Positions 1 to 63,926 of a DNA stretch of 64,000 nt are shown here, piece by piece. How positions within the stretch are numbered: position 1 is the stretch's first letter; each line of letters begins with the position of its first letter. The notes below the pieces were generated by a model that was given only the letters and a program-made list of their open reading frames with translations, was not told the DNA's origin and searched no databases. A program made the translations under genes and the position numbers. Origin of the DNA: an uncultured Gammaproteobacteria bacterium (GTDB lineage: Bacteria > Patescibacteriota > Patescibacteriia > Patescibacteriales > GWC2-42-12); contig CAYSKV010000004.1 in NCBI GenBank assembly GCA_964431805.1, forward strand, positions 12,201 to 76,200, read 5' to 3'.

Positions 1-240
1 ATTTTCGTAATATATAATTACAAGTATGATGGTACAGGCATTGATTTGCCGGGTTATTTTTCTTTATATATAATTTTTATTGCGCCATTTTTATTTTTTA
101 TTCCATACAAATTGGCCAGTATAGAAAATATAGAGACAAAATTTTATTTTATTTTTTTTGGTCTTATACTGCCTTATTTGATGATTTATTTCCTTATTTA
201 TTTAGAATTTAGAAAAAATTTTAATCCTACTATTCTGTAG
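1..240 (+). CDS. C-terminal fragment of a hydrophobic membrane protein, truncated by the window edge
   Basis: Frame 1 is open from nt 1 to the TAG at 238-240. The product is Phe/Ile/Leu/Tyr-rich with TM-like stretches. No family recognised. Confidence 0.3.
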   Translation: MFVIYNYKYDGTGIDLPGYFSLYIIFIAPFLFFIPYKLASIENIETKFYFIFFGLILPYLMIYFLIYLEFRKNFNPTIL

Positions 241-251
241 TAATTTTGAGC

Positions 252-284
252 CAATACTTTTATATTTAAAGTATTGCTTTTATT
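252..284 (+). terminator. Rho-independent terminator candidate
   Basis: 9-bp stem CAATACTTT / AAAGTATTG with a 7-nt loop, followed by CTTTTATT. Confidence 0.55.
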
Positions 285-305
285 ATAGTATTTAATATCC
301 TATTT

Positions 306-334
306 TTGACTCCCAAACTCATATTTGCTATTAT
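306..334 (+). promoter_or_regulatory. sigma70-type promoter candidate
   Basis: TTGACT (306-311), 17-nt spacer, TATTAT (329-334); lies upstream of ATG 366. Confidence 0.5.
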
Positions 335-365
335 TAAATAATAATTAACTAATAACTAACTATTT

Positions 366-1340
366 ATGAATTTTAGAAACATTTTTAAGAAAGTTAAACC
401 CGTTACTAACGGCGGTAAAAAAATTGTCATAATAATCAGCGCGGTTTTAATTTTGCTTATAGTAATTGCTGCTGGTTTAGTCTTTTATTTAAAAAATGCT
501 AAAAAGGTTTTAAAGCCGGAAGAGGCTATGGTTGTGGCAGAAAAATTTATCAATGAAAATTTAGTATCGCCCAGCAATAAAGCTACGATTAAAAGCGCGG
601 TTTTAGAGGGTGATGTTTATAGTATTGTTTTAACCGTAGGTGGTAAAGATTATACTTCCTATATGACTAAAGATGGAGCCAAATTTTTTGAATCAGGAAT
701 TGATATGGCGAAATTTGCTGCAGAAAATAAAGCGCAACAAACTGCTTCAACTAATACCGCGCAACCTACTAATGTGCCGAAAAGTGATAAGCCAAAAGTA
801 GAATTGTTCGTTATGACCGAATGCCCTTATGGATTGCAAGCGGAAAAAGGCATTTTGCCGGCTTTCGCGGCGTTAGGCAATAAAATTGACGCCTCAATCA
901 AGTTTGTTCATTATTTTATGCATGGCGATAAAGAAGAAAAAGAAACTTATAATCAAGTTTGTATCAGAGATGAGCAACCTGCAAAATATGATAGTTATTT
1001 AAATTGCTATGTTATACAAGGCGATAATGCAAAATGCGTCGCGCAGGCTGGAATTGATAAAGCGAAAATGGACAGTTGCGTCGCCTCTAAAGCTAAAGAT
1101 ATTTATAAAGCGGATTCAGCTTTAAGCAATCAATATGGCGTAGAAGGTAGTCCGACTTTAATAATTAATGGAGCTCAGTCTAGCGCGGGTAGAGATGCGG
1201 CTAGTTATTTGGCCGGTATTTGCGCGGCTTTTAATACTGCTCCGGCAGAATGTTCAAATAAATTATCTAGTACGGCTCCGGCTGCTGGTTTTGGCGCCGG
1301 CGATGATGCTTCGGGCGGTGCAGCGGCTAGTTGCAATTAA
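366..1340 (+). CDS. Membrane-anchored thioredoxin-fold (DsbA-like) protein
   Basis: N-terminal TM helix (VIIISAVLILLIVIAAGLVFYL). The C-terminal half has DsbA/thioredoxin-like strings (VELFVMTECPYG, YGVEGSPTLIINGA). The active-site position reads CPYG, not CxxC. Confidence 0.55.
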   Translation: MNFRNIFKKVKPVTNGGKKIVIIISAVLILLIVIAAGLVFYLKNAKKVLKPEEAMVVAEKFINENLVSPSNKATIKSAVLEGDVYSIVLTVGGKDYTSYMTKDGAKFFESGIDMAKFAAENKAQQTASTNTAQPTNVPKSDKPKVELFVMTECPYGLQAEKGILPAFAALGNKIDASIKFVHYFMHGDKEEKETYNQVCIRDEQPAKYDSYLNCYVIQGDNAKCVAQAGIDKAKMDSCVASKAKDIYKADSALSNQYGVEGSPTLIINGAQSSAGRDAASYLAGICAAFNTAPAECSNKLSSTAPAAGFGAGDDASGGAAASCN

Positions 1341-24629: not shown

Positions 24630-24920
24630 TTATTTTTCTTGTCTTTCCATTTTTATGGCTTTAAATGGGCACTCAACTGCGCATAAGCCACAACCCTTAC
24701 AATACAATAAATCACATTCAAAATATTTTTTACCGCTAGCGTTAGTTTTTTCGGTTTGATTAATTATGCCTTCAGGACAAATTCGTTGGCAAATGCCGCA
24801 AGCCGTGCATGCGTCATGTAAAAAATTTGGCCGGTTAGTGCGCCAGGCGCCGGTTTTATTTATTAATGTTGTGTTTGGTGAAACTGAAATATTATTTTTT
24901 ACCCCGTTAGATAGTCTCAT
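24630..24920 (-). CDS. porD: Pyruvate:ferredoxin oxidoreductase delta subunit (2x[4Fe-4S] ferredoxin)
   Basis: Two CxxCxxCxxxCP motifs: CTACGICQRICP and CKGCGLCAVECP. Confidence 0.9.
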   Translation of the reverse strand: MRLSNGVKNNISVSPNTTLINKTGAWRTNRPNFLHDACTACGICQRICPEGIINQTEKTNASGKKYFECDLLYCKGCGLCAVECPFKAIKMERQEK

Positions 24921-24961
24921 GTTTTTTAGTTATACCCCGTAAAATAATTATCTAACGGGGT
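24901..24961 (-). promoter_or_regulatory. 13-bp perfect inverted repeat enclosing the porD start codon (porG-porD junction)
   Basis: ACCCCGTTAGATA (24901-24913) is the exact reverse complement of TATCTAACGGGGT (24949-24961). A third partial copy, ACCCCGT, sits at 24934-24940. The porD ATG (24920-24918) lies inside. Confidence 0.6.
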
Positions 24962-34758: not shown

Positions 34759-37224
34759 ATGAATTTTACTATAATATTACCATTAATCAGCGCGATCTTA
34801 GCTATTAGCATAGGCATTTTTGTATTTAAGCAAAATAGAAAAAGTTTGATAAATCAAACTTTTTTTCTTTTTACTCTTGGTATAACGGAATGGTTTATTT
34901 GCACTTTCATGATGTTTTTATATAAAGATGATGTGGCGGGGGTAATTTTTTGGGATAGATTAGTCTATGCTGGTGTAGCATTTATGCCGGTTTTTACTTA
35001 TAAATTTTATTTAGCCTTAATTGGTAAAAAATCTGACAAAATTCTTTATGTCGGTTATTTATTATCAATAAGTTTTGCGATCCTTACACGTTCAAAATAT
35101 TTTATTGATGGTATTTATGTTTATAGCTGGGGCGTCCATACACAAGCTAGAATTCTGCACCATATATTTTTGGTGTATTTTGTAGTATTTATATTATTAT
35201 GGTTCTTCGCTACTTTAAAATTTTATAAAAGCCTTAAACCGTCATTAATTAAAGAACAAACTAAATATATATTTATATCTTTTGGCGTATTTTATTTAAT
35301 TGCGCCTCTCGGTTTTTTAGCGGCTTATAATGTAGGAGTTTATCCTGTAACATATTTTTCTGGATTAATTTTTACTATCATGATGGCTTATTGTATAGCG
35401 ATTTATCGCGTTATGGACATTAAATTAGTAATTAGAAAATCCTCCGTCTATCTCTTTTCCCTGGCCACAGTTTTAATTTTTATGACGACCGTTAAATTGA
35501 TTTCTGCTCAATTATTTACTGCTCCTCCAATTTGGATTGATTTATTGGTTCTATTAATTGCTGTTTATATTTTTTCGCCTATTAAGCATTATTACTATCG
35601 TTTAGCTAATAAATATTTCTTCTCCTCTTTGTATGATAGCCGCGAACTAATTGCTGATTTAAGCGATAAACTCCGCTCTACCATTGAAATCGGTAAAATC
35701 TATGAATATGTTTCAGAAATTTTAGTTAATGCTTTGCACGTGACCGCTTTTGGCGTTGTGTCTTTTGATGAAAAAAAACAAGTTTATATAACCCAGTATG
35801 GTCAAGGCTTAAACATCGGCCAACAAGAAATATTCCCAGGCAGTAAAGAAATATATAAAATTTTTACTAAAAGAAATCAGCCGATCATTGTTGAAGAAAT
35901 AAAATTTAGTAATTTTAAAATTAATAAGTCAATTTTAAATTTACTCACTAAAGCAAACGTCGCCCTGTTATCTCCTCTAAACATGAAAGATAAAACAGTC
36001 GGCATGATGGTATTTGGCCCTAAAGAATCCAAAGACCCTTTTAACGAAGAAGATTTAAAAGTTCTAGAAATTTTAGGCACGCAAATCGCTTTTGCCATGG
36101 AGAACGCTTTGCTCTACGCAGAATCGGTAAAATTTAATATCCAATTGAATGAAGAAAAAAATAAAATTGCGGCTATTATCGCTAACTTTATCGACCCGAT
36201 TATCTTTGTTGACCGCTATAATAATATTAACCTCATAAACCCGGCCGCTAAAAACATCCTCGGTTTAACAGAAAAAAGCTTGGGCGTAAGCATAGATACT
36301 AGCAATAATTGCCCGATGTCTAACTTCCGTACCGTCATCAAAAAAGAGTTTCAGATTAAAGAAATTGGCAATTTAAAATCAACTGATCATCATAGCGAAG
36401 AAATGTCTATTTTAGTTAATAACCAAGAATTAATTTATAAAATTACAACCATCAGGGTTTTTGATGATCAAACAAACCACCTAGGCCTCATGAAAATTTT
36501 CGTCAATCTCACCCGCGAAAAAGGCATTGATAAAATGAAATCAGAATTTATCTCTATCGCCGCCCATCAGCTAAGAACCCCATTATCAGCCATTAAATGG
36601 GTAATTAAGATGATATTAGACGGGGATGCTGGAGAACTTAATGTTGAGCAAAAAGATTTATTAAGGAAGGGCTATATTAGCAACGAAAGAATTATCAGAT
36701 TAGTTAATGATTTATTAAACGTTTCTCGTATTGAAGAAGGTAAGTTTGGATTTAATTTTGAAAAAACCGATTTTCAAGAAATTTTGACTACGACCAAAAG
36801 CAACTTAGAAGGTTTAATAGCAAAAAATCACCAAGAATTAATAGTGCAAAAACCAGAGAAACTACCTAAAGTATATCTGGACAAAGAAAGAATGGTTATG
36901 GTTTTGCAAAATTTACTTGATAATGCCATAAAATATACTCCAGAATATGGAAAAATAGAAATAATTGTTACTACCGACAAAAAATTTCTGCATGTTAAAG
37001 TTAAAGATCAAGGGGTAGGCATAAGCAAAAATGATCAAGCTAAATTATTTTCTAAATTTTTCCGAGCCTCTAATGCGCTTAAACTAGAAACCGAAGGCAG
37101 CGGATTAGGATTGTTTATAGTAAAAAATATTATTGAAAAACATAATGGTTCAATTGAATTAAAAAGCGAAGAAGGTCGAGGAACCGAAATAAGTTTTTCT
37201 TTGCCAATTGAGCAAAAACTTTAG
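34759..37224 (+). CDS. Sensor histidine kinase 1 (multi-TM sensor, GAF-like, PAS-like, HisKA, HATPase_c)
   Basis: H-box SIAAHQLRTPL, N-box LLDNAIKYTP, G-boxes DQGVGI and GSGLGL, and an N-terminal domain of about 7 TM segments. Confidence 0.9.
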   Translation: MNFTIILPLISAILAISIGIFVFKQNRKSLINQTFFLFTLGITEWFICTFMMFLYKDDVAGVIFWDRLVYAGVAFMPVFTYKFYLALIGKKSDKILYVGYLLSISFAILTRSKYFIDGIYVYSWGVHTQARILHHIFLVYFVVFILLWFFATLKFYKSLKPSLIKEQTKYIFISFGVFYLIAPLGFLAAYNVGVYPVTYFSGLIFTIMMAYCIAIYRVMDIKLVIRKSSVYLFSLATVLIFMTTVKLISAQLFTAPPIWIDLLVLLIAVYIFSPIKHYYYRLANKYFFSSLYDSRELIADLSDKLRSTIEIGKIYEYVSEILVNALHVTAFGVVSFDEKKQVYITQYGQGLNIGQQEIFPGSKEIYKIFTKRNQPIIVEEIKFSNFKINKSILNLLTKANVALLSPLNMKDKTVGMMVFGPKESKDPFNEEDLKVLEILGTQIAFAMENALLYAESVKFNIQLNEEKNKIAAIIANFIDPIIFVDRYNNINLINPAAKNILGLTEKSLGVSIDTSNNCPMSNFRTVIKKEFQIKEIGNLKSTDHHSEEMSILVNNQELIYKITTIRVFDDQTNHLGLMKIFVNLTREKGIDKMKSEFISIAAHQLRTPLSAIKWVIKMILDGDAGELNVEQKDLLRKGYISNERIIRLVNDLLNVSRIEEGKFGFNFEKTDFQEILTTTKSNLEGLIAKNHQELIVQKPEKLPKVYLDKERMVMVLQNLLDNAIKYTPEYGKIEIIVTTDKKFLHVKVKDQGVGISKNDQAKLFSKFFRASNALKLETEGSGLGLFIVKNIIEKHNGSIELKSEEGRGTEISFSLPIEQKL
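35438..36636 (+). repeat. Identical segment shared by the two kinase genes (copy 1)
   Basis: 35438-36582 is identical base for base to 37956-39100 (offset 2518; I compared every line). There are two mismatches at 36583 and 36585, then identity to 36636. Confidence 0.95.
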
Positions 37225-37255: not shown

Positions 37256-39748
37256 ATGAATTTACAAAATTTTTTATCACTAAATGGTCTTTTAACCGGA
37301 ATCATAGCCGCTGTTTTTGGTTTCATGGTTATTTTTAAAGATCGAAAAAATATTATTAATCAAACCCTTTTTGGCCTAACTATGACTACCGCTCTTTGGC
37401 AACTTGGTTATTGGCGTTGGTTAATGATTTATGATAATCAAGATTTAGCTTTATTTTGGTGTCGAGTTTTATCAGTCGGTTCTCATTTTCTCGCAGTTTT
37501 TTATTTTCATTGGATTGTTTCTTTGTTGGGTTTGAATAAACAGAAAAAAAAGCTTATTTTTGTTTCTTATTTTGTAGCTGGTATTTTTTTGTTTTTTATT
37601 TTTTCCCCTTGGTTTGTCAGTAGTGTTGAGCCCGTCGGAAATTATTTTGCTTTTTGGCCTAAAGCCGGTTTTTTATATTCTATTTACATAGTTTTAATGT
37701 TTTTGGGTTTAGCTCCTTATGCTCTTTTTTTACTTTTCAGACATTATAAAAAATCTGTTGGTCAAAAAAGAAATCAAATAAAATATGTTATTATTGCCAC
37801 AATTCTCGCTTTTGGTGGGGGAGAAACTAATTTTCCTCTTTGGTATGATATTCCTATATTGCCCATAGGAAATGTATTAGTCGTGTTATATCCAATTCTT
37901 TTTTCTTATGCAATTATTAGACATCGTTTAATGGATATAAAGTTTGTTTTACGCCAATCCTCCGTCTATCTCTTTTCCCTGGCCACAGTTTTAATTTTTA
38001 TGACGACCGTTAAATTGATTTCTGCTCAATTATTTACTGCTCCTCCAATTTGGATTGATTTATTGGTTCTATTAATTGCTGTTTATATTTTTTCGCCTAT
38101 TAAGCATTATTACTATCGTTTAGCTAATAAATATTTCTTCTCCTCTTTGTATGATAGCCGCGAACTAATTGCTGATTTAAGCGATAAACTCCGCTCTACC
38201 ATTGAAATCGGTAAAATCTATGAATATGTTTCAGAAATTTTAGTTAATGCTTTGCACGTGACCGCTTTTGGCGTTGTGTCTTTTGATGAAAAAAAACAAG
38301 TTTATATAACCCAGTATGGTCAAGGCTTAAACATCGGCCAACAAGAAATATTCCCAGGCAGTAAAGAAATATATAAAATTTTTACTAAAAGAAATCAGCC
38401 GATCATTGTTGAAGAAATAAAATTTAGTAATTTTAAAATTAATAAGTCAATTTTAAATTTACTCACTAAAGCAAACGTCGCCCTGTTATCTCCTCTAAAC
38501 ATGAAAGATAAAACAGTCGGCATGATGGTATTTGGCCCTAAAGAATCCAAAGACCCTTTTAACGAAGAAGATTTAAAAGTTCTAGAAATTTTAGGCACGC
38601 AAATCGCTTTTGCCATGGAGAACGCTTTGCTCTACGCAGAATCGGTAAAATTTAATATCCAATTGAATGAAGAAAAAAATAAAATTGCGGCTATTATCGC
38701 TAACTTTATCGACCCGATTATCTTTGTTGACCGCTATAATAATATTAACCTCATAAACCCGGCCGCTAAAAACATCCTCGGTTTAACAGAAAAAAGCTTG
38801 GGCGTAAGCATAGATACTAGCAATAATTGCCCGATGTCTAACTTCCGTACCGTCATCAAAAAAGAGTTTCAGATTAAAGAAATTGGCAATTTAAAATCAA
38901 CTGATCATCATAGCGAAGAAATGTCTATTTTAGTTAATAACCAAGAATTAATTTATAAAATTACAACCATCAGGGTTTTTGATGATCAAACAAACCACCT
39001 AGGCCTCATGAAAATTTTCGTCAATCTCACCCGCGAAAAAGGCATTGATAAAATGAAATCAGAATTTATCTCTATCGCCGCCCATCAGCTAAGAACCCCA
39101 CTCTCAGCCATTAAATGGGTAATTAAGATGATATTAGACGGGGATGCTGGAGAATTGTCTCTGGAACAACAAGAACTATTAAACAAAGGTTATCTAAGCA
39201 ACGAACGAGTTATTAGGTTAGTTAACGACCTATTGAACGTTTCTCGTATTGAAGAAGGCAAATTTGGGTTTAATTTTGAGAGCACTGATTTTAAAGAAGT
39301 TCTAGACACTTCCATTAGTAATATTGATAGTTTAATTGATAAAAGCCATCAAGAGCTCAAGATTGAAATCCCGCCAAAACTACCCAAGATATATTTAGAT
39401 AAAGAAAGAATCATTATGGTAATACAAAATTTATTAAGTAATGCCATCAAATATACTCCAGAATATGGTAAGATTGAAGTAATTATTAAAGTTGACAAGC
39501 AGTACCTGAATGTTAAAATTAAAGACCAGGGGGTAGGCATACCGGCCGAAGATCAGCCAAAAATATTTTCTAAATTTTTCCGAGCGGCTAATGTGGTTAA
39601 ATTAGAAACCGAAGGCAGCGGACTAGGCCTCTTTATGGTTAAAAACATCATCGAAAAACATAAGGGCCAAGTCAGTTTAAAAAGCGAAGAAGGCAAAGGC
39701 ACGGAAGTTAGTTTTACTTTGCCGATAAATGGAATGATTAGTTTATAA
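37256..39748 (+). CDS. Sensor histidine kinase 2 (paralog of 34759-37224)
   Basis: Same domain order as kinase 1. The N-terminal TM sensor is only weakly similar, the core is identical, and the catalytic domain is moderately diverged. Confidence 0.9.
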   Translation: MNLQNFLSLNGLLTGIIAAVFGFMVIFKDRKNIINQTLFGLTMTTALWQLGYWRWLMIYDNQDLALFWCRVLSVGSHFLAVFYFHWIVSLLGLNKQKKKLIFVSYFVAGIFLFFIFSPWFVSSVEPVGNYFAFWPKAGFLYSIYIVLMFLGLAPYALFLLFRHYKKSVGQKRNQIKYVIIATILAFGGGETNFPLWYDIPILPIGNVLVVLYPILFSYAIIRHRLMDIKFVLRQSSVYLFSLATVLIFMTTVKLISAQLFTAPPIWIDLLVLLIAVYIFSPIKHYYYRLANKYFFSSLYDSRELIADLSDKLRSTIEIGKIYEYVSEILVNALHVTAFGVVSFDEKKQVYITQYGQGLNIGQQEIFPGSKEIYKIFTKRNQPIIVEEIKFSNFKINKSILNLLTKANVALLSPLNMKDKTVGMMVFGPKESKDPFNEEDLKVLEILGTQIAFAMENALLYAESVKFNIQLNEEKNKIAAIIANFIDPIIFVDRYNNINLINPAAKNILGLTEKSLGVSIDTSNNCPMSNFRTVIKKEFQIKEIGNLKSTDHHSEEMSILVNNQELIYKITTIRVFDDQTNHLGLMKIFVNLTREKGIDKMKSEFISIAAHQLRTPLSAIKWVIKMILDGDAGELSLEQQELLNKGYLSNERVIRLVNDLLNVSRIEEGKFGFNFESTDFKEVLDTSISNIDSLIDKSHQELKIEIPPKLPKIYLDKERIIMVIQNLLSNAIKYTPEYGKIEVIIKVDKQYLNVKIKDQGVGIPAEDQPKIFSKFFRAANVVKLETEGSGLGLFMVKNIIEKHKGQVSLKSEEGKGTEVSFTLPINGMISL
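37956..39154 (+). repeat. Identical segment shared by the two kinase genes (copy 2)
   Basis: See 35438-36636. Even the antisense 73-aa track ORFs (35877-36098 and 38395-38616) are identical. Confidence 0.95.
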
Positions 39749-41467: not shown

Positions 41468-41719
41468 TTAAATTAGGTTTGAGTAGGATTTATTTTTTTT
41501 GCGTTTAAACTCACAATGAAAAATAAAAGTCGAGATACCAGCGAGCATCGTCATCAAAGAGACGACAGACACAAAAGAGAAAATGTCATAATAATTCGCT
41601 GGCTGGTTAGAAAAAATTATTTTTTGGAACAGTTCTTCTGCTGTCGGCCATAATAAAAATGATATAGCCGTAGCGCTGGCAACAAACAAGAAAAGTAAAT
41701 AAGTTGTTCGATTTTTCAT
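41468..41719 (-). CDS. Hypothetical small membrane protein
   Basis: 83 aa with two TM segments. Confidence 0.45.
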   Translation of the reverse strand: MKNRTTYLLFLFVASATAISFLLWPTAEELFQKIIFSNQPANYYDIFSFVSVVSLMTMLAGISTFIFHCEFKRKKNKSYSNLI

Positions 41720-44027: not shown

Positions 44028-45119
44028 TTATCTGGCCAATACGTATTGCATACTGCCTAAATTTTTTACCATTCCTTTCATTTCCATGATAGTAAGTGTA
44101 CTATTTATAATTGATGTGTCAAGTTTTGTCAACTGTTTAAGCTCGTCAATATGAATTGGCTCATAAGATAATCCCGCGAGAATTATTTTTTCTTCATTTG
44201 TATCAGGAATTACTTTTTTGTTTTCAATGTAAGAAGCCGCTTCGGCTAAATTAAGAGTTTCTATAATATCTTTAGCGCTGGTTACTAATTTTGCTCCCAT
44301 AGCAATTAAGCGATTAGTGCCTTCCGAAGAACCGGAATAAATACTGCCGGGCACGGCAAAAACTTCTCGATTTTGCTCTAAAGCATGAAAAGCCGTAATT
44401 AGCGCGCCGGATTTTTCAGCGGCTTCTACAACTAAAGTAGCGTTAGATAGGCCGGAAATTATTCGGTTTCTTTGGGGAAAGTGATGCTTTAAAGGCATAG
44501 TGCCGATTGGGTATTCTGATAAAATTAATCCGCCGTGAGTCTGAATTTTATCCGCTAAATAGCGATTTTGTGAAGGGTAAATATTTTGTTGGTCAAGTCC
44601 GGAGCCTAAAACCGCTACGGTTTTTCCGCCAGCTTCAATCGCGGCTGAATGAGCTAGAGTATCTATGCCTAAAGCTAAGCCGCTCGTAATAGTTAAATTA
44701 TTTAAACTTAACTCTCTGGTTAATTTTTCCGTAGCTTGCGCTCCGTAAGGGCTATATTTTCTGGCGCCGACCACGGCTAGTAAAAAACCGTTCAAAGCTT
44801 CTAAATCTCCGCGGTAATATAAGATAAAGGGCGGATCATAAATTTGTTTTAAAAGTTTTGGGTAAGCTGGATCTTCTATGGTTAAAGCTTTTAATTTTTC
44901 TTTGTTCAAATTTTCCAATAATTTTTCCGGTTCAACTTTATGTTTAAAAATTATGAATTCTTCAGCGATCTTTTCTTCAATGCCAGCGTGAATATAATCT
45001 TTTATCGTGGCTTTATAGGCGTTTTCAATATTAGAAAAATAATTTTTTAACTTTTTAAATTTTATTGGGCCGAATTTATAAAACTGGCTTAGCGCCAGCC
45101 AATATTTAAGATCATTCAT
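44028..45119 (-). CDS. dprA: DNA processing protein DprA (Smf)
   Basis: VVGARKYSPYG, GLALGIDTLAHSAA, FPQRNRIISGLS, VVEAAEKSGALITA; adjacent to topA, as in many bacteria. Confidence 0.92.
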   Translation of the reverse strand: MNDLKYWLALSQFYKFGPIKFKKLKNYFSNIENAYKATIKDYIHAGIEEKIAEEFIIFKHKVEPEKLLENLNKEKLKALTIEDPAYPKLLKQIYDPPFILYYRGDLEALNGFLLAVVGARKYSPYGAQATEKLTRELSLNNLTITSGLALGIDTLAHSAAIEAGGKTVAVLGSGLDQQNIYPSQNRYLADKIQTHGGLILSEYPIGTMPLKHHFPQRNRIISGLSNATLVVEAAEKSGALITAFHALEQNREVFAVPGSIYSGSSEGTNRLIAMGAKLVTSAKDIIETLNLAEAASYIENKKVIPDTNEEKIILAGLSYEPIHIDELKQLTKLDTSIINSTLTIMEMKGMVKNLGSMQYVLAR

Positions 45120-45168
45120 GTTTAATTTTTATTTTATATTAGCGATAATTATCTAGATTATTTAAGTC

Positions 45169-45197
45169 TTGACAGGATGGTTTAGTTATGTTAATAT
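45169..45197 (+). promoter_or_regulatory. Consensus sigma70-type promoter for candidate sRNA 1
   Basis: TTGACA (45169-45174), 17-nt spacer, TAATAT (45192-45197). Confidence 0.65.
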
Positions 45198-45203
45198 ACT
45201 ATG

Positions 45204-45332
45204 ATATTTAATTTTATAGCGTTCAGTTTGTTACTTGCTTAAGGGCATAATTTATAAATAGTTTTCCTCCTTAATTATTTATAAATTTTGAATCCCTTTT
45301 AAAGCAAGTAGCACATTGAGCGTTATTTTTTT
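45204..45332 (+). ncRNA. Candidate sRNA 1: ~110-nt extended hairpin with a CCUCCU apical loop and U7 terminator
   Basis: 45216-45245 pairs with 45294-45326 (one mismatch, four G.U pairs, a small internal loop). A 12-bp apical stem joins 45249-45260 and 45276-45287. The 15-nt loop is GTTTTCCTCCTTAAT. T-run 45326-45332. Confidence 0.55.
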
Positions 45333-45360
45333 GACAATTATCTTTTTTCATAATAACATA
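45331..45360 (+). promoter_or_regulatory. sigma70-type promoter candidate for element 2 / orphan ORF leader
   Basis: TTGACA (45331-45336) overlaps the preceding U-run. The best -10 candidates are TAATAA (45351-45356) or TAACAT (45355-45360). Confidence 0.45.
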
Positions 45361-45361
45361 T

Positions 45362-45505
45362 TTAGACGTAACCACAAATAGTATTTAGAATTTTGTCTAG
45401 GAGTGGTGAAAGTTAAACCTCCCTCCTGGTTTGGCTGGAGCCTTAAATCGGGGTTATCCCTATGCTTCTAGACAGAATTGTAAATAGTATTTGTTGTTTT
45501 TATTT
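45362..45505 (+). ncRNA. Candidate structured RNA 2 or 5' leader of ORF 45551 (27-bp closing stem, anti-SD box)
   Basis: 45374-45400 pairs with 45468-45494 (two G-G mismatches, one G.U pair), followed by TGTTTTTATTTATT. The internal CCTCCCTCCT (45418-45427) contains CCCTCCT, complementary to AGGAGGG (45540-45546). Confidence 0.45.
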
Positions 45506-45550
45506 ATTGGTCATTATAACTAATTATTTAAAGAGATTGAGGAGGGTATA

Positions 45551-45871
45551 ATGAATGCTATAGAAATGACGGTTAAAGTTGTTGACAGGAAAAACGAAGG
45601 AGATATTCATAATGATGATTTTATTTACGGCGGCTGGAAAGATGAAGATGAGAAAAAAGAATTCGTCCAGTATTTAAGGCTTGGGCGCTTCTTTCAAGCC
45701 CAACACGAACACTTAAAACAGCTGACAGTATTAAAGAATGACAAAGAAATAGTGCGAGCAGTTATTGCTGGAGAAACTAATAATGAAAATATTCTGCGCG
45801 ATGCTCGCAACGAATACCTCTACTTTTTTAAAGCAAAACATGGTAAACTCCCCAGCTTTAAGAAACAATAA
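45551..45871 (+). CDS. Hypothetical 106-aa cytoplasmic protein (orphan)
   Basis: Strong SD GAGGAGGG sits 4 nt before ATG 45551. No TM segment and no recognisable family. Confidence 0.6.
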   Translation: MNAIEMTVKVVDRKNEGDIHNDDFIYGGWKDEDEKKEFVQYLRLGRFFQAQHEHLKQLTVLKNDKEIVRAVIAGETNNENILRDARNEYLYFFKAKHGKLPSFKKQ

Positions 45872-51567: not shown

Positions 51568-51618
51568 AAGGTTTACGCTTATTAAGCGATTTAGCAATAT
51601 TGGATTGGAGGTGCATTT

Positions 51619-51855
51619 ATGGCAGAATTCAAAAGAAAAAAAGGCGAAAGTTTTGAGAGCTTCTTAAGAAGATTCAATAAAAAACTTCAGCAAAGCGGCA
51701 AATTATATTTAGCCCGCCAGGTTCAACATGTTCAGCCGAAAATCAATAAAACGCAGCAGAAAAAGCGCGCTTTAGTTGGCATGAAACTTAAATCAAAAAG
51801 AGAATATTTAAAGAAAATCGGTAAACTAGAAGAAGAAACCAGAAAGAGATGGTAA
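51619..51855 (+). CDS. rpsU: 30S ribosomal protein S21
   Basis: MAEFKRKKGESFESFLRRFNKK...; basic, 78 aa. Confidence 0.88.
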   Translation: MAEFKRKKGESFESFLRRFNKKLQQSGKLYLARQVQHVQPKINKTQQKKRALVGMKLKSKREYLKKIGKLEEETRKRW

Positions 51856-51863
51856 ATAAAAAT

Positions 51864-52313
51864 ATGTCAAAATTACTAGAACAAATTAATCAAGATTTAA
51901 AAGAAGCCATGAAAAGCAAAGAGGCGGACTTAACGTCTGTCTTAAGAATGCTAATTTCCGCGATACGCAATAAAGAAATAACTTTAAGAAAAGACGGCCA
52001 GGCCGAATTATCCGACGAGCAAGTTTTAGAAGTTATAAGTTCGGAAGTTAAAAAACGTCGTGATTCAATCGAAGCTTATATTTCTGGCGGACGCCAGGAA
52101 TTAGCGGATAAAGAAAATTCTGAAATAAAAATTTTAGAAAAATATTTACCCGAGCAGATGTCGGATGAAGAATTAGAAAAAGTCGTTAAAGAAGTTATCG
52201 GCGCTGGAGATGAAAATTTCGGAAAAGTAATGGGGCAAGTTATGGCGAAAGTAAAAGGCAAAGCCGATGGCGGAAAAGTAGGGGAAATGGTAAAAAAATT
52301 ATTAGTGAAATAA
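51864..52313 (+). CDS. yqeY: GatB/YqeY domain protein
   Basis: LKEAMKSKEADLTSVLRMLISAIRNKEI. The ATG at 51864 avoids overlap with rpsU; the track start is 51849. Confidence 0.85.
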   Translation: MSKLLEQINQDLKEAMKSKEADLTSVLRMLISAIRNKEITLRKDGQAELSDEQVLEVISSEVKKRRDSIEAYISGGRQELADKENSEIKILEKYLPEQMSDEELEKVVKEVIGAGDENFGKVMGQVMAKVKGKADGGKVGEMVKKLLVK

Positions 52314-62852: not shown

Positions 62853-62953
62853 CCCCAGTTAGAAATTAATTAATGGTTTAATTATTCTGGTTATATTAAG
62901 TAAAAATAAAATAATTACTGCGATGAAAAAACAAAAAAGAAATTCTAACGGGG
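62853..62953 (+). promoter_or_regulatory. Imperfect inverted repeat of the CCCCGTTAGA family spanning the ybeY start codon
   Basis: CCCCAGTTAGAAATT (62853-62867) versus AATTCTAACGGGG (62941-62953): 4 + 7 bp with one bulged A. ATG 62923 lies between the arms. Confidence 0.5.
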
Positions 62954-63749: not shown

Positions 63750-63926
63750 AGAGATAGTTACAAAACTATTTTGTAACGAAATTTAGATATTTTTTGCCAA
63801 GACGAGGAAGGCCAGCAAAATGATTGAGTCGTAGCAATAGCTACGGCGAAATAACTTTGCGCCAGCTTGACGAAGTATTGATAGAAAATAGCAAATTGCA
63901 GTAAAAATAATTTTGTAACTATCTCT
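63750..63926 (+). ncRNA. Candidate structured leader/sRNA or MITE-like element closed by a 23-nt inverted repeat
   Basis: AGAGATAGTTACAAAACTATTTT (63750-63772) versus AAAATAATTTTGTAACTATCTCT (63904-63926), 22/23 complementary. A competing local hairpin is GTTACAAAA-CTA-TTTTGTAAC (63757-63777). An inner hairpin is CGTAGC-AATA-GCTACG. Confidence 0.45.

Follow-up and report, generated by a model that had tools for sequence, protein, structure and literature searches.

The locus described here lies in a 64,000-nt stretch of contig CAYSKV010000004.1 (GenBank assembly GCA_964431805.1, positions 12,201 to 76,200 of the forward strand), referred to below as the window, to which all coordinates refer unless a related locus is named; the contig comes from an uncultured bacterium of the candidate phyla radiation (CPR; Patescibacteriota, GWC2-42-12 in the GTDB lineage). 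Here the minus-strand genes topA and dprA are followed by a 430-nt intergenic region, by a plus-strand open reading frame (ORF) designated ORF106, and by two further minus-strand genes, pth and der. Two tandem RNA genes, designated hairpin RNA 1 (hairpin 1) and RNA 2, were identified in this intergenic region; they constitute two new, previously undescribed RNA families of Falkowbacteria-type CPR bacteria. The features of the region are as follows, where SD denotes a Shine-Dalgarno sequence, ASD an anti-Shine-Dalgarno sequence and MFE the minimum free energy.

45148..45175, minus strand: dprA promoter-like site, CTGTCA-16-GATAAT; its -35 box overlaps that of promoter P1 (divergent promoters), and the region is conserved in the alignment
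45169..45197, plus strand: promoter P1, TTGACA-17-TAATAT with a TG extended -10, placed before hairpin RNA 1
45216..45326, plus strand: hairpin RNA 1, 111 nt, three coaxial helices with approximately 50 bp in total
45264..45272, plus strand: apical loop of hairpin 1, UUCCUCCUU, 9 nt, unpaired in the MFE and consensus structures
45326..45332, plus strand: U7 tract after hairpin 1, overlapping the -35 box of promoter P2 (second TTGACA at 45331)
45331..45359, plus strand: promoter P2, TTGACA-17-TAACAT, before RNA 2, kept in close relatives
45374..45494, plus strand: RNA 2, approximately 120 nt, in which a long P1 helix closes a three-way junction; MFE z = -5
45397..45403, plus strand: CUAGGAG, 5' strand of the top of the RNA 2 P1 helix, invariant, pairing with CUUCUAG at 45465-45471
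45412-45435, plus strand: P2 hairpin of RNA 2, one arm of the three-way junction
45420..45427, plus strand: apical loop of the RNA 2 P2 hairpin, UCCCUCCU, a second ASD-like loop, unpaired in the MFE and consensus structures
45450-45460, plus strand: P3 hairpin of RNA 2, short; the junction sequence is CUUAAAU
45551-45871, plus strand: ORF106, an orphan ORF of 106 amino acids, with SD GAGGAGGG at 45539-45546, 4 nt before the ATG

For comparison, GTDB species representatives were searched with DprA, which gave 80 related loci (given L numbers below), many of them titled Candidatus Falkowbacteria. The RNA alignments were gathered by similarity and with a covariance model, an approach which favours conserved loops, while the GTDB loci themselves were found via DprA and independently of the RNAs. 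The synteny in relatives runs from der and pth through RNA 2 and hairpin 1, which are encoded on the opposite strand, to dprA and topA.

An initial annotation of this DNA had described positions 45169 to 45332 as a stand-alone transcription unit, in which a consensus promoter is followed by an almost perfect hairpin of approximately 110 nt and by a U7 tract merging into the next TTGACA. All of these elements were found to be present, with the addition of the extended -10, and the unit is a genuine plus-strand RNA gene with a conserved promoter: TTGACA-N14-TGnTAATAT is kept 5' of hairpin 1 in nearly all homologous loci, distant members included. The MFE of hairpin 1 is -49 kcal/mol, compared to -18 +/- 3 for dinucleotide shuffles (z = -10.2; 0 of 200 shuffles were equal), while that of its complement is just -28.4 kcal/mol. 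Internal loops are all small in both the MFE and the consensus structures, and the lower stem carries the four G.U pairs and single mismatch already read from the sequence, the mismatch being U-C. The apical loop had been given as 15 nt and must be shortened to 9 nt, since the flanking AUAGUU and AAUUAU are paired, with covariation; UUGC/GCAA pairs inside the helix are invariant. From the sequence we infer that both RNAs are transcribed, hairpin RNA 1 as a species of approximately 125 nt, and that they are stable.

The U tract of hairpin 1 was found in close relatives only and is lost in distant homologues; in this genome it may act as a terminator. As the tract is not conserved, and as hairpin 1 and RNA 2 are separated by only 15 nt in L027, the RNA pair may form one operon in some species. 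Identification of the hairpin as an intrinsic terminator was considered and rejected, as no plus-strand gene reads into it, distant members do not retain the U tract and a terminator scan made no call. A 6S RNA (approximately 150-200 nt) was also rejected, given a 111-nt hairpin which lacks a large central bubble and has no Rfam match.

RNA 2 lies within a region (45333-45550) which had been taken as mere spacer in the initial annotation. In more distant relatives a ATAATAnCATATTT box remains at the position of promoter P2. CCCUCCU was present in the P2 loop of 19 out of 19 RNA 2 sequences, with C50, C51, C54 and T56 unchanged throughout the alignment. The top of the P1 helix is UAGGAG/CUYCUA, an SD:ASD-like duplex in which pairs 27-105, 28-104 and 32-100 are constant and G30 stands opposite U or C. 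A covariance model built on hairpin 1 (R1) also matched, weakly, the position of RNA 2 in other loci, and distant loci (L048, L050, L053, L054, L056, L058, L063 and L095) were found to encode just one RNA, an RNA 2-like three-way junction whose loop is of the CCUCC(U) type; because of these weak matches, and because the distant loci carry only the junction type, hairpin 1 and RNA 2 are probably paralogues, of which the three-way-junction form would be the older. RNA 2 occurs alone, without hairpin 1, in L029 and L030.

Both RNAs are supported by covariation in related genomes, a check proposed in the initial annotation. In an alignment of 18 hairpin 1 sequences, 38 pairs were 96.5% paired and 26 of the 38 showed compensatory (two-sided) changes, compared to 8.4 +/- 2.0 when columns were shuffled and 5-10 in slid controls. 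In the 19-sequence alignment of RNA 2, 39 pairs were 95.8% paired and 19 were compensatory (7.1 +/- 1.8 in shuffles). Where ORF106 is present, the intergenic DNA is conserved far above the protein, with approximately 96% identity for RNA 2 and 91% for hairpin 1, and with compensatory changes. The substitution pattern of hairpin 1 is one of compensatory pairing and is not codon-like. A type I toxin-antitoxin or dual-function small RNA (sRNA) was rejected, as the 13-codon ORF from 45201 is interrupted or absent in relatives; with no conserved peptide ORF, the antitoxin-like role suggested in the initial annotation was abandoned.

The strand was settled by three observations. G.U cells exceed A.C cells by 88:9 in hairpin 1 and 103:12 in RNA 2, with pairing falling to 84-85% in the complement, which bears out the plus-strand specificity claimed in the initial annotation; the conserved promoters are on the same strand; and tRNA genes follow RNA 2 on the same strand, adjoining it in L033 and L043 and lying approximately 30 nt downstream in L040. 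The tRNA-Pro gene of L033 starts 4 nt past the RNA 2 P1 helix, and a tRNA placed directly after RNA 2 implies co-transcription and release by RNase P. Genes for tRNA-Pro (UGG, GGG and CGG) recur 3' of RNA 2 and on its strand (L033 2229-2415, L043 844-1035, L177 4846-4922). The CCU-CCU of the RNA loops would read as two proline codons, probably by coincidence or as a result of a shared stable-RNA operon; codon display for tRNA-Pro was dropped as an explanation, as it concerns only two or three lineages and has no supporting mechanism. A 77-nt tRNA in L040 (2283-2359, minus strand) has a Pro-like acceptor stem and body, no long variable arm and an AGA anticodon; ARAGORN labels it Ser(aga), and these features may point to an unusual tRNA or to one involved in recoding.

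R1 identified hairpin 1 in approximately 28 GTDB loci, down to approximately 54% DprA identity, with one copy per locus and a single copy in the 64-kb window. Hairpin 1 is always located just upstream of dprA and divergent from it, and approximately 36 species carry it in all. A metagenome pattern scan gave at least 120 matches; 8 true members were found among the matches listed, and 8 of 8 lie beside dprA. None of 12 pattern matches in IMG/VR viral contigs was confirmed by the covariance model. No CCUCC-loop hairpin was detected within 900 nt upstream of dprA in L024 or L034, and pth was not detected in either locus. A miniature inverted-repeat transposable element (MITE), raised in the initial annotation as an alternative, or any other multicopy element, was excluded by the single copy at an orthologous position and the lack of confirmed viral-contig matches; a phage origin was rejected on the latter grounds. 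There was no match to any Rfam 15 family, 6S, SRP, OLE, RsaE and RNAIII included, at the gathering score in the window, and nine homologous loci gave tRNAs only; when 45050-45600 and L056 were scanned permissively (E up to 10), only chance matches, to eukaryotic and viral Rfam families, were obtained. Neither RNA was found described in literature searches.

The initial annotation had pointed to CCUCCU as exposed in the loop of hairpin 1, and this stretch is unpaired in both structures; CCUCCUU at 45266-45272 is the 3'-terminal ASD heptamer of bacterial 16S rRNA. The heptamer was present in 37 of 37 members of the hairpin 1 family, 8 of which had been picked by a pattern containing it, so that the loss of loop conservation which the initial annotation had named as evidence against it was not observed. 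The 5' part of the loop is variable among members. ACCUCCUU was found in 3 of the 37 sequences, two of which (L038 and L044) have the longer form CACCUCCUU, a 9-of-9 match to the canonical 16S 3' end. Pairing of the loop with the RNase P CR-I element (GGAGGAAAG) was considered and dropped, as the 5' part of the loop varies.

The distribution of SD sequences was assessed by simple motif matching (positions -20 to -3) with mechanically assigned start codons. An SD motif was found before only 1 of 45 ORFs of at least 100 amino acids in the window (ORF106), against a background of 4.7%; the 44 others bear out the earlier remark that most genes here lack an SD. When small ORFs were included, 3 of approximately 48 window genes were SD-led, namely ORF106 and the two following genes. 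In the 80 related loci, the motif preceded 39 of 352 long ORFs (approximately 10%).

41468-41719 (to 41732 with its SD), minus strand: ORF83, a seemingly unannotated membrane ORF of 83 amino acids, with SD GGGAGGGG, just downstream of topA
51619-51855, plus strand: rpsU, encoding bS21 (78 amino acids), with SD UGGAGGUG 5 nt before the AUG (from 51607); yqeY is the next gene

The homologue of ORF83 in L022 has the SD AAAGGAGGGG, and there is none in the closest relative, L020. The identity of rpsU is supported by the Pfam S21 model (E = 5.7e-5), by homologues named 30S ribosomal protein S21 and by yqeY directly downstream; the rpsU-yqeY unit spans 51607-52313. In five relatives (66-83% identity) rpsU keeps GGAGGUG, GGGGGUG or GGAAGGUG, while the adjacent hisS and yqeY have no comparable SD. 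CUAGA was observed 2-5 nt 5' of the rpsU SD in these relatives (L232-L236, positions 1470-1500). It resembles the invariant CUAGGAG...GGUGAAAG of the RNA 2 5' strand, and RNA 2 may be a mimic of the rpsU leader.

In the Bacteroidia, the ASD is sequestered by bS21, bS18 and bS6, which results in SD-blind ribosomes; a strong SD is found on a single gene, rpsU, whose translation by bS21-free ribosomes leads to autoregulation (PMC7797042, PMC9976891, PMC13000453). With rare SDs and a retained rpsU SD, the window matches this signature of putatively SD-blind ribosomes, which in literature searches was described only for Bacteroidota. As in the Bacteroidia, SDs are nearly absent here and rpsU has a strong extended SD (GGAGGUG) which is kept in relatives. 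The Bacteroidia circuit as described has no RNA component, however, and belongs to Bacteroidota rather than CPR bacteria, ASD sequestration having been shown only in Bacteroidia; in addition, at least two further small genes with a strong SD are present here. No 16S gene was found in the window or in the related loci retrieved; a functional CACCUCC 16S tail is indirectly argued for by the conserved SDs at 4-8-nt spacing and by the GGAGGUG of rpsU.

Duplex energies were predicted for the two loops, and for the canonical 16S tail, over 48 start regions of the window, with the closed-loop constraint ignored (kcal/mol).

ORF83 start: hairpin 1 loop -14.5; RNA 2 loop -14.4; canonical 16S tail -12.2
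ORF106 start: hairpin 1 loop -13.7; RNA 2 loop -13.8; canonical 16S tail -12.7
rpsU start: hairpin 1 loop -8.9; RNA 2 loop -11.5; canonical 16S tail -13.1
Median of the 48 starts: hairpin 1 loop approximately -3; RNA 2 loop approximately -3; canonical 16S tail -3.3

ORF83 ranked first and ORF106 second for both loops, while the rpsU SD, GGAGGUG, suits the CACCUCC of 16S rRNA better than the hairpin 1 loop.

The explanation which we tentatively favour, at a confidence clearly short of even, is that both RNAs act as free ASD copies, pairing with the SDs of a small set of SD-led genes. The long helix of each RNA would present an apical loop of 8-9 nt containing CCUCCU(U), which would base-pair with the AAGGAGG- or GGAGGG-type SDs of this set and of incoming SD-led mRNAs. 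Such pairing would withhold these mRNAs from ribosomes with an exposed ASD, resulting in translational repression or buffering, and rpsU would be less disturbed by the RNAs than the other SD-led genes. We infer both the SD pairing of the loops and the direction of any effect from base complementarity. The translational-repressor or sponge role proposed in the initial annotation is plausible on these terms. It had singled out the strong SD of ORF106 as the complement of the loop; this SD is confirmed, while a dedication of the RNA to ORF106 was not supported, as just 6 homologues of ORF106 were found and most RNA loci lack it, the RNAs being far wider spread.

Several points weigh against pairing with SDs as the function. 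An ASD-like loop is automatically complementary to any SD, and a search of the window for extended or covarying target pairing of the loops and their flanks gave only chance-level results and no such target; the best matches with extended complementarity were GAG-GAG-GAA codons within genes. SD use was not correlated with the presence of the RNAs, being approximately 10% in the 80 loci both with and without them. The SD-led neighbours differ by lineage and so leave the invariance of the loop unexplained, and they could be foreign genes at a hot spot beside tRNA genes. The invariant helix pairs (UUGC/GCAA in hairpin 1; UAGGAG/CUYCUA in RNA 2) point to recognition by a protein, which antisense pairing does not need, and a closed loop of 9 nt restricts the length of pairing.

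These same helix pairs, as possible sequence-specific protein contacts, are among the evidence for the main rival, a protein decoy, in which the loops and the SD:ASD-like duplex of RNA 2 would imitate the 16S 3' tail and bind a protein which normally holds it, most likely bS21, and possibly bS18 and bS6 as well; titration of this protein would set the share of ribosomes with a free ASD and hence the translation of rpsU and of the other SD-led genes. We regard such a decoy as possible, although rather doubtful. An experimental precedent exists in OLE RNA, where bS21 binds a stem in which an exact CCUCCU mimic is paired to an SD-like strand (PMC12054373), and bS21 is encoded in the window with an SD of the Bacteroidia type (PMC9976891, PMC13000453). 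Loop invariance over approximately 36 species would need a conserved partner, for which variable accessory targets are insufficient, and abundant, stable RNAs are suggested by the strength of the promoters and the location alongside tRNA genes. On the other hand, each RNA has one ASD-like site, where classical sponges such as CsrB have many; the ASD of hairpin 1 is in a loop and not in a duplex as in OLE P6; and ASD sequestration by bS21 was shown in Bacteroidia and not in CPR bacteria. A decoy for Era was considered unlikely, as most CPR bacteria lack Era (PMC10582724). Somewhat less probable, and in our view unlikely, is another kind of housekeeping ribonucleoprotein, in which a pyrimidine loop would serve a partner outside the SD/ASD interaction (a KH-type protein, or a processing or quality-control factor) and the likeness to the ASD would be coincidental. 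Long helices with invariant internal pairs, near-consensus promoters, the direct fusion to tRNA genes in three lineages, which is typical of stable RNA operons, and the lack of a target with extended complementarity would all fit such a particle; coincidence is harder to reconcile with two otherwise diverged paralogues which both retain CCUCCU, with members reaching CACCUCCUU (9 of 9 with the canonical 16S end), and with a genome context in which the SD/ASD interaction appears to be in regulatory use.

Two further explanations concern the nature of the transcript. RNA 2, with or without hairpin 1, might be the 5' untranslated region of the next SD-led gene, with its CCUCC loop pairing to that gene's own SD, a reading not far from the dedicated regulator of ORF106 in the initial annotation. 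A gene with a strong SD does follow directly on the same strand in several lineages, and read-through is plausible given that only a weak terminator is expected from the stem base and the U-rich stretch following RNA 2. In most loci, however, there is no downstream gene, RNA 2 being followed at once by the convergent pth or by tRNA genes; ORF106 has few homologues; and in the MFE fold the SD of ORF106 is unpaired with the P2 hairpin of RNA 2 intact, making such a cis-acting leader very unlikely. That the locus is no RNA gene at all, but a mobile palindrome, a DNA cruciform, or a minus-strand terminator or processing hairpin between pth and dprA (with the loop AAGGAGG), was given almost no credence. 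It is true that the element is a long intergenic inverted repeat, that it lies between pth and dprA when read on the minus strand, and that a real REP-like (repetitive extragenic palindromic) sequence, CCCCGTTAGA, is present in these genomes. The single window copy has orthologues in approximately 36 species, however, and the eight listed metagenome members are all beside dprA; pairing is 96% on the plus strand versus 84-85% for the complement, with a G.U:A.C ratio of approximately 9:1; the plus strand is also the one with the conserved promoters and the abutting tRNA genes; and no member was confirmed in viral contigs.

The RNAs were compared with known systems. The P6 stem of OLE RNA in Bacillota contains a CCUCCU ASD mimic with its SD-like strand paired and is bound by bS21 (PMC12054373). 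The likeness is that a non-ribosomal structured RNA carries the exact CCUCCU of 16S rRNA, that RNA 2 may have a counterpart of the paired P6 strands in its UAGGAG/CUYCUA duplex, and that a bS21 gene is present. The two differ in that there is no sequence or structural homology, in size (approximately 120 nt here versus 600 nt for OLE) and in the unpaired ASD of hairpin 1; the host here is a CPR bacterium with few SDs, in which bS21 is only a candidate binding partner. C-rich or UCCC-loop sRNAs of Bacillota (RNAIII hairpins, RsaE/RoxS and LhrC) block SD sequences. With RNAIII, RsaE and LhrC the RNAs share an unpaired C/U-rich hairpin-loop motif complementary to GGAGG-type SDs, and sibling copies; they differ in the full invariant ASD heptamer, the 50-bp helix with conserved internal pairs, the nearly SD-free host, the tRNA neighbours and the constitutive-looking promoters, and there is no homology (Rfam). 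Among decoy RNAs, 6S RNA mimics open promoter DNA, and CsrB and RsmZ sequester CsrA. An abundant stable RNA imitating the ligand of a central machine would, in principle, be alike, while ligand, architecture and size differ, there being no central bubble, no repeated GGA sites and no Rfam match. Hairpin 1 and RNA 2 are placed outside the OLE, C-rich-loop sRNA and decoy families, and an ASD mimic would be new for this lineage and translational setting.

A wider proposal, which we consider improbable, is that the RNAs form the RNA arm of a specialised-ribosome circuit of CPR bacteria, in which titration of bS21 or capture of SD-led mRNAs would decide whether SDs are read. Such an arm would amount to a translational filter, whereby foreign, phage or accessory SD-led mRNAs would be silenced while the SD-less mRNAs of the host pass, an RNA-based counterpart of xenogeneic silencing. 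Should the RNAs act on SDs or on bS21, SD-blind specialised ribosomes would be extended to a second, very distant lineage; we know of no free-standing small RNAs acting as anti-SD mimics, and these would then be the first. A large part of bacterial diversity belongs to the CPR/Patescibacteria, from which, to our knowledge, few lineage-specific regulatory RNAs are known. The locus provides two covariation-backed RNA families with one invariant and interpretable element, the anti-SD heptamer, and the hypotheses raised are open to in vitro work without culturing the organism.

The genes downstream of RNA 2 were also compared. ORF106 had 6 homologues among 5.8 billion proteins (62-76% identity); its AlphaFold model is helical (mean confidence score, pLDDT, 67) and had no Foldseek match in the PDB. 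Genes with a strong SD at canonical spacing, directly 3' of RNA 2 and on the same strand, were found in 4 of 7 gene families, which are mutually unrelated: the ORF106 family (window, L020, L022, L025 and L121); two genes in L037 (approximately 40-1332, minus strand) with the SDs AAGGAGGUG and AAAGGAGGU; a zinc-ribbon ORF of 52-55 amino acids (L038 and L044); and a 342-amino-acid protein (L033). No SD precedes the three other same-strand neighbours (L027, L046 and L047). The SD-led neighbours may be targets, or foreign genes which landed at a hot spot beside tRNA and stable-RNA genes. There was no significant Pfam, PHROGs or PADLOC assignment for the neighbour proteins. Sub-threshold Pfam matches were to zinc-ribbon domains (the 55-amino-acid ORF of L044) and to OMP_b-brl (E = 6e-5, one L037 gene); marginal matches linked the L033 protein to phrog_87 (metallo-protease; E = 3.5e-4) and to a pAgo model (E = 0.003), and the zinc-ribbon ORF to phrog_6586. 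The OMP_b-brl-like gene is odd for a CPR bacterium and could reflect horizontal transfer or a chimeric contig.

Other repeats were observed in the window and its relatives. A REP/MITE-like palindrome, ACCCCGTTAGA...TCTAACGGGGT, occurs at 2007-2085, 24902-24960 and 62854-62953 of the window (9 matches versus 1.7 expected). In L013 (3566-3640) and L015 an insertion of the same palindrome separates promoter P1 from the hairpin, and several copies lie upstream of hairpin 1 in L040. The ORFs at 34759-37224 (821 amino acids) and 37256-39748 (830 amino acids) are apparent tandem paralogues, with identical k-mers 2518 nt apart. A 23-nt inverted repeat, 96% complementary and with arms 131 nt apart, is located at 63750-63926 in the last intergenic region of the window.

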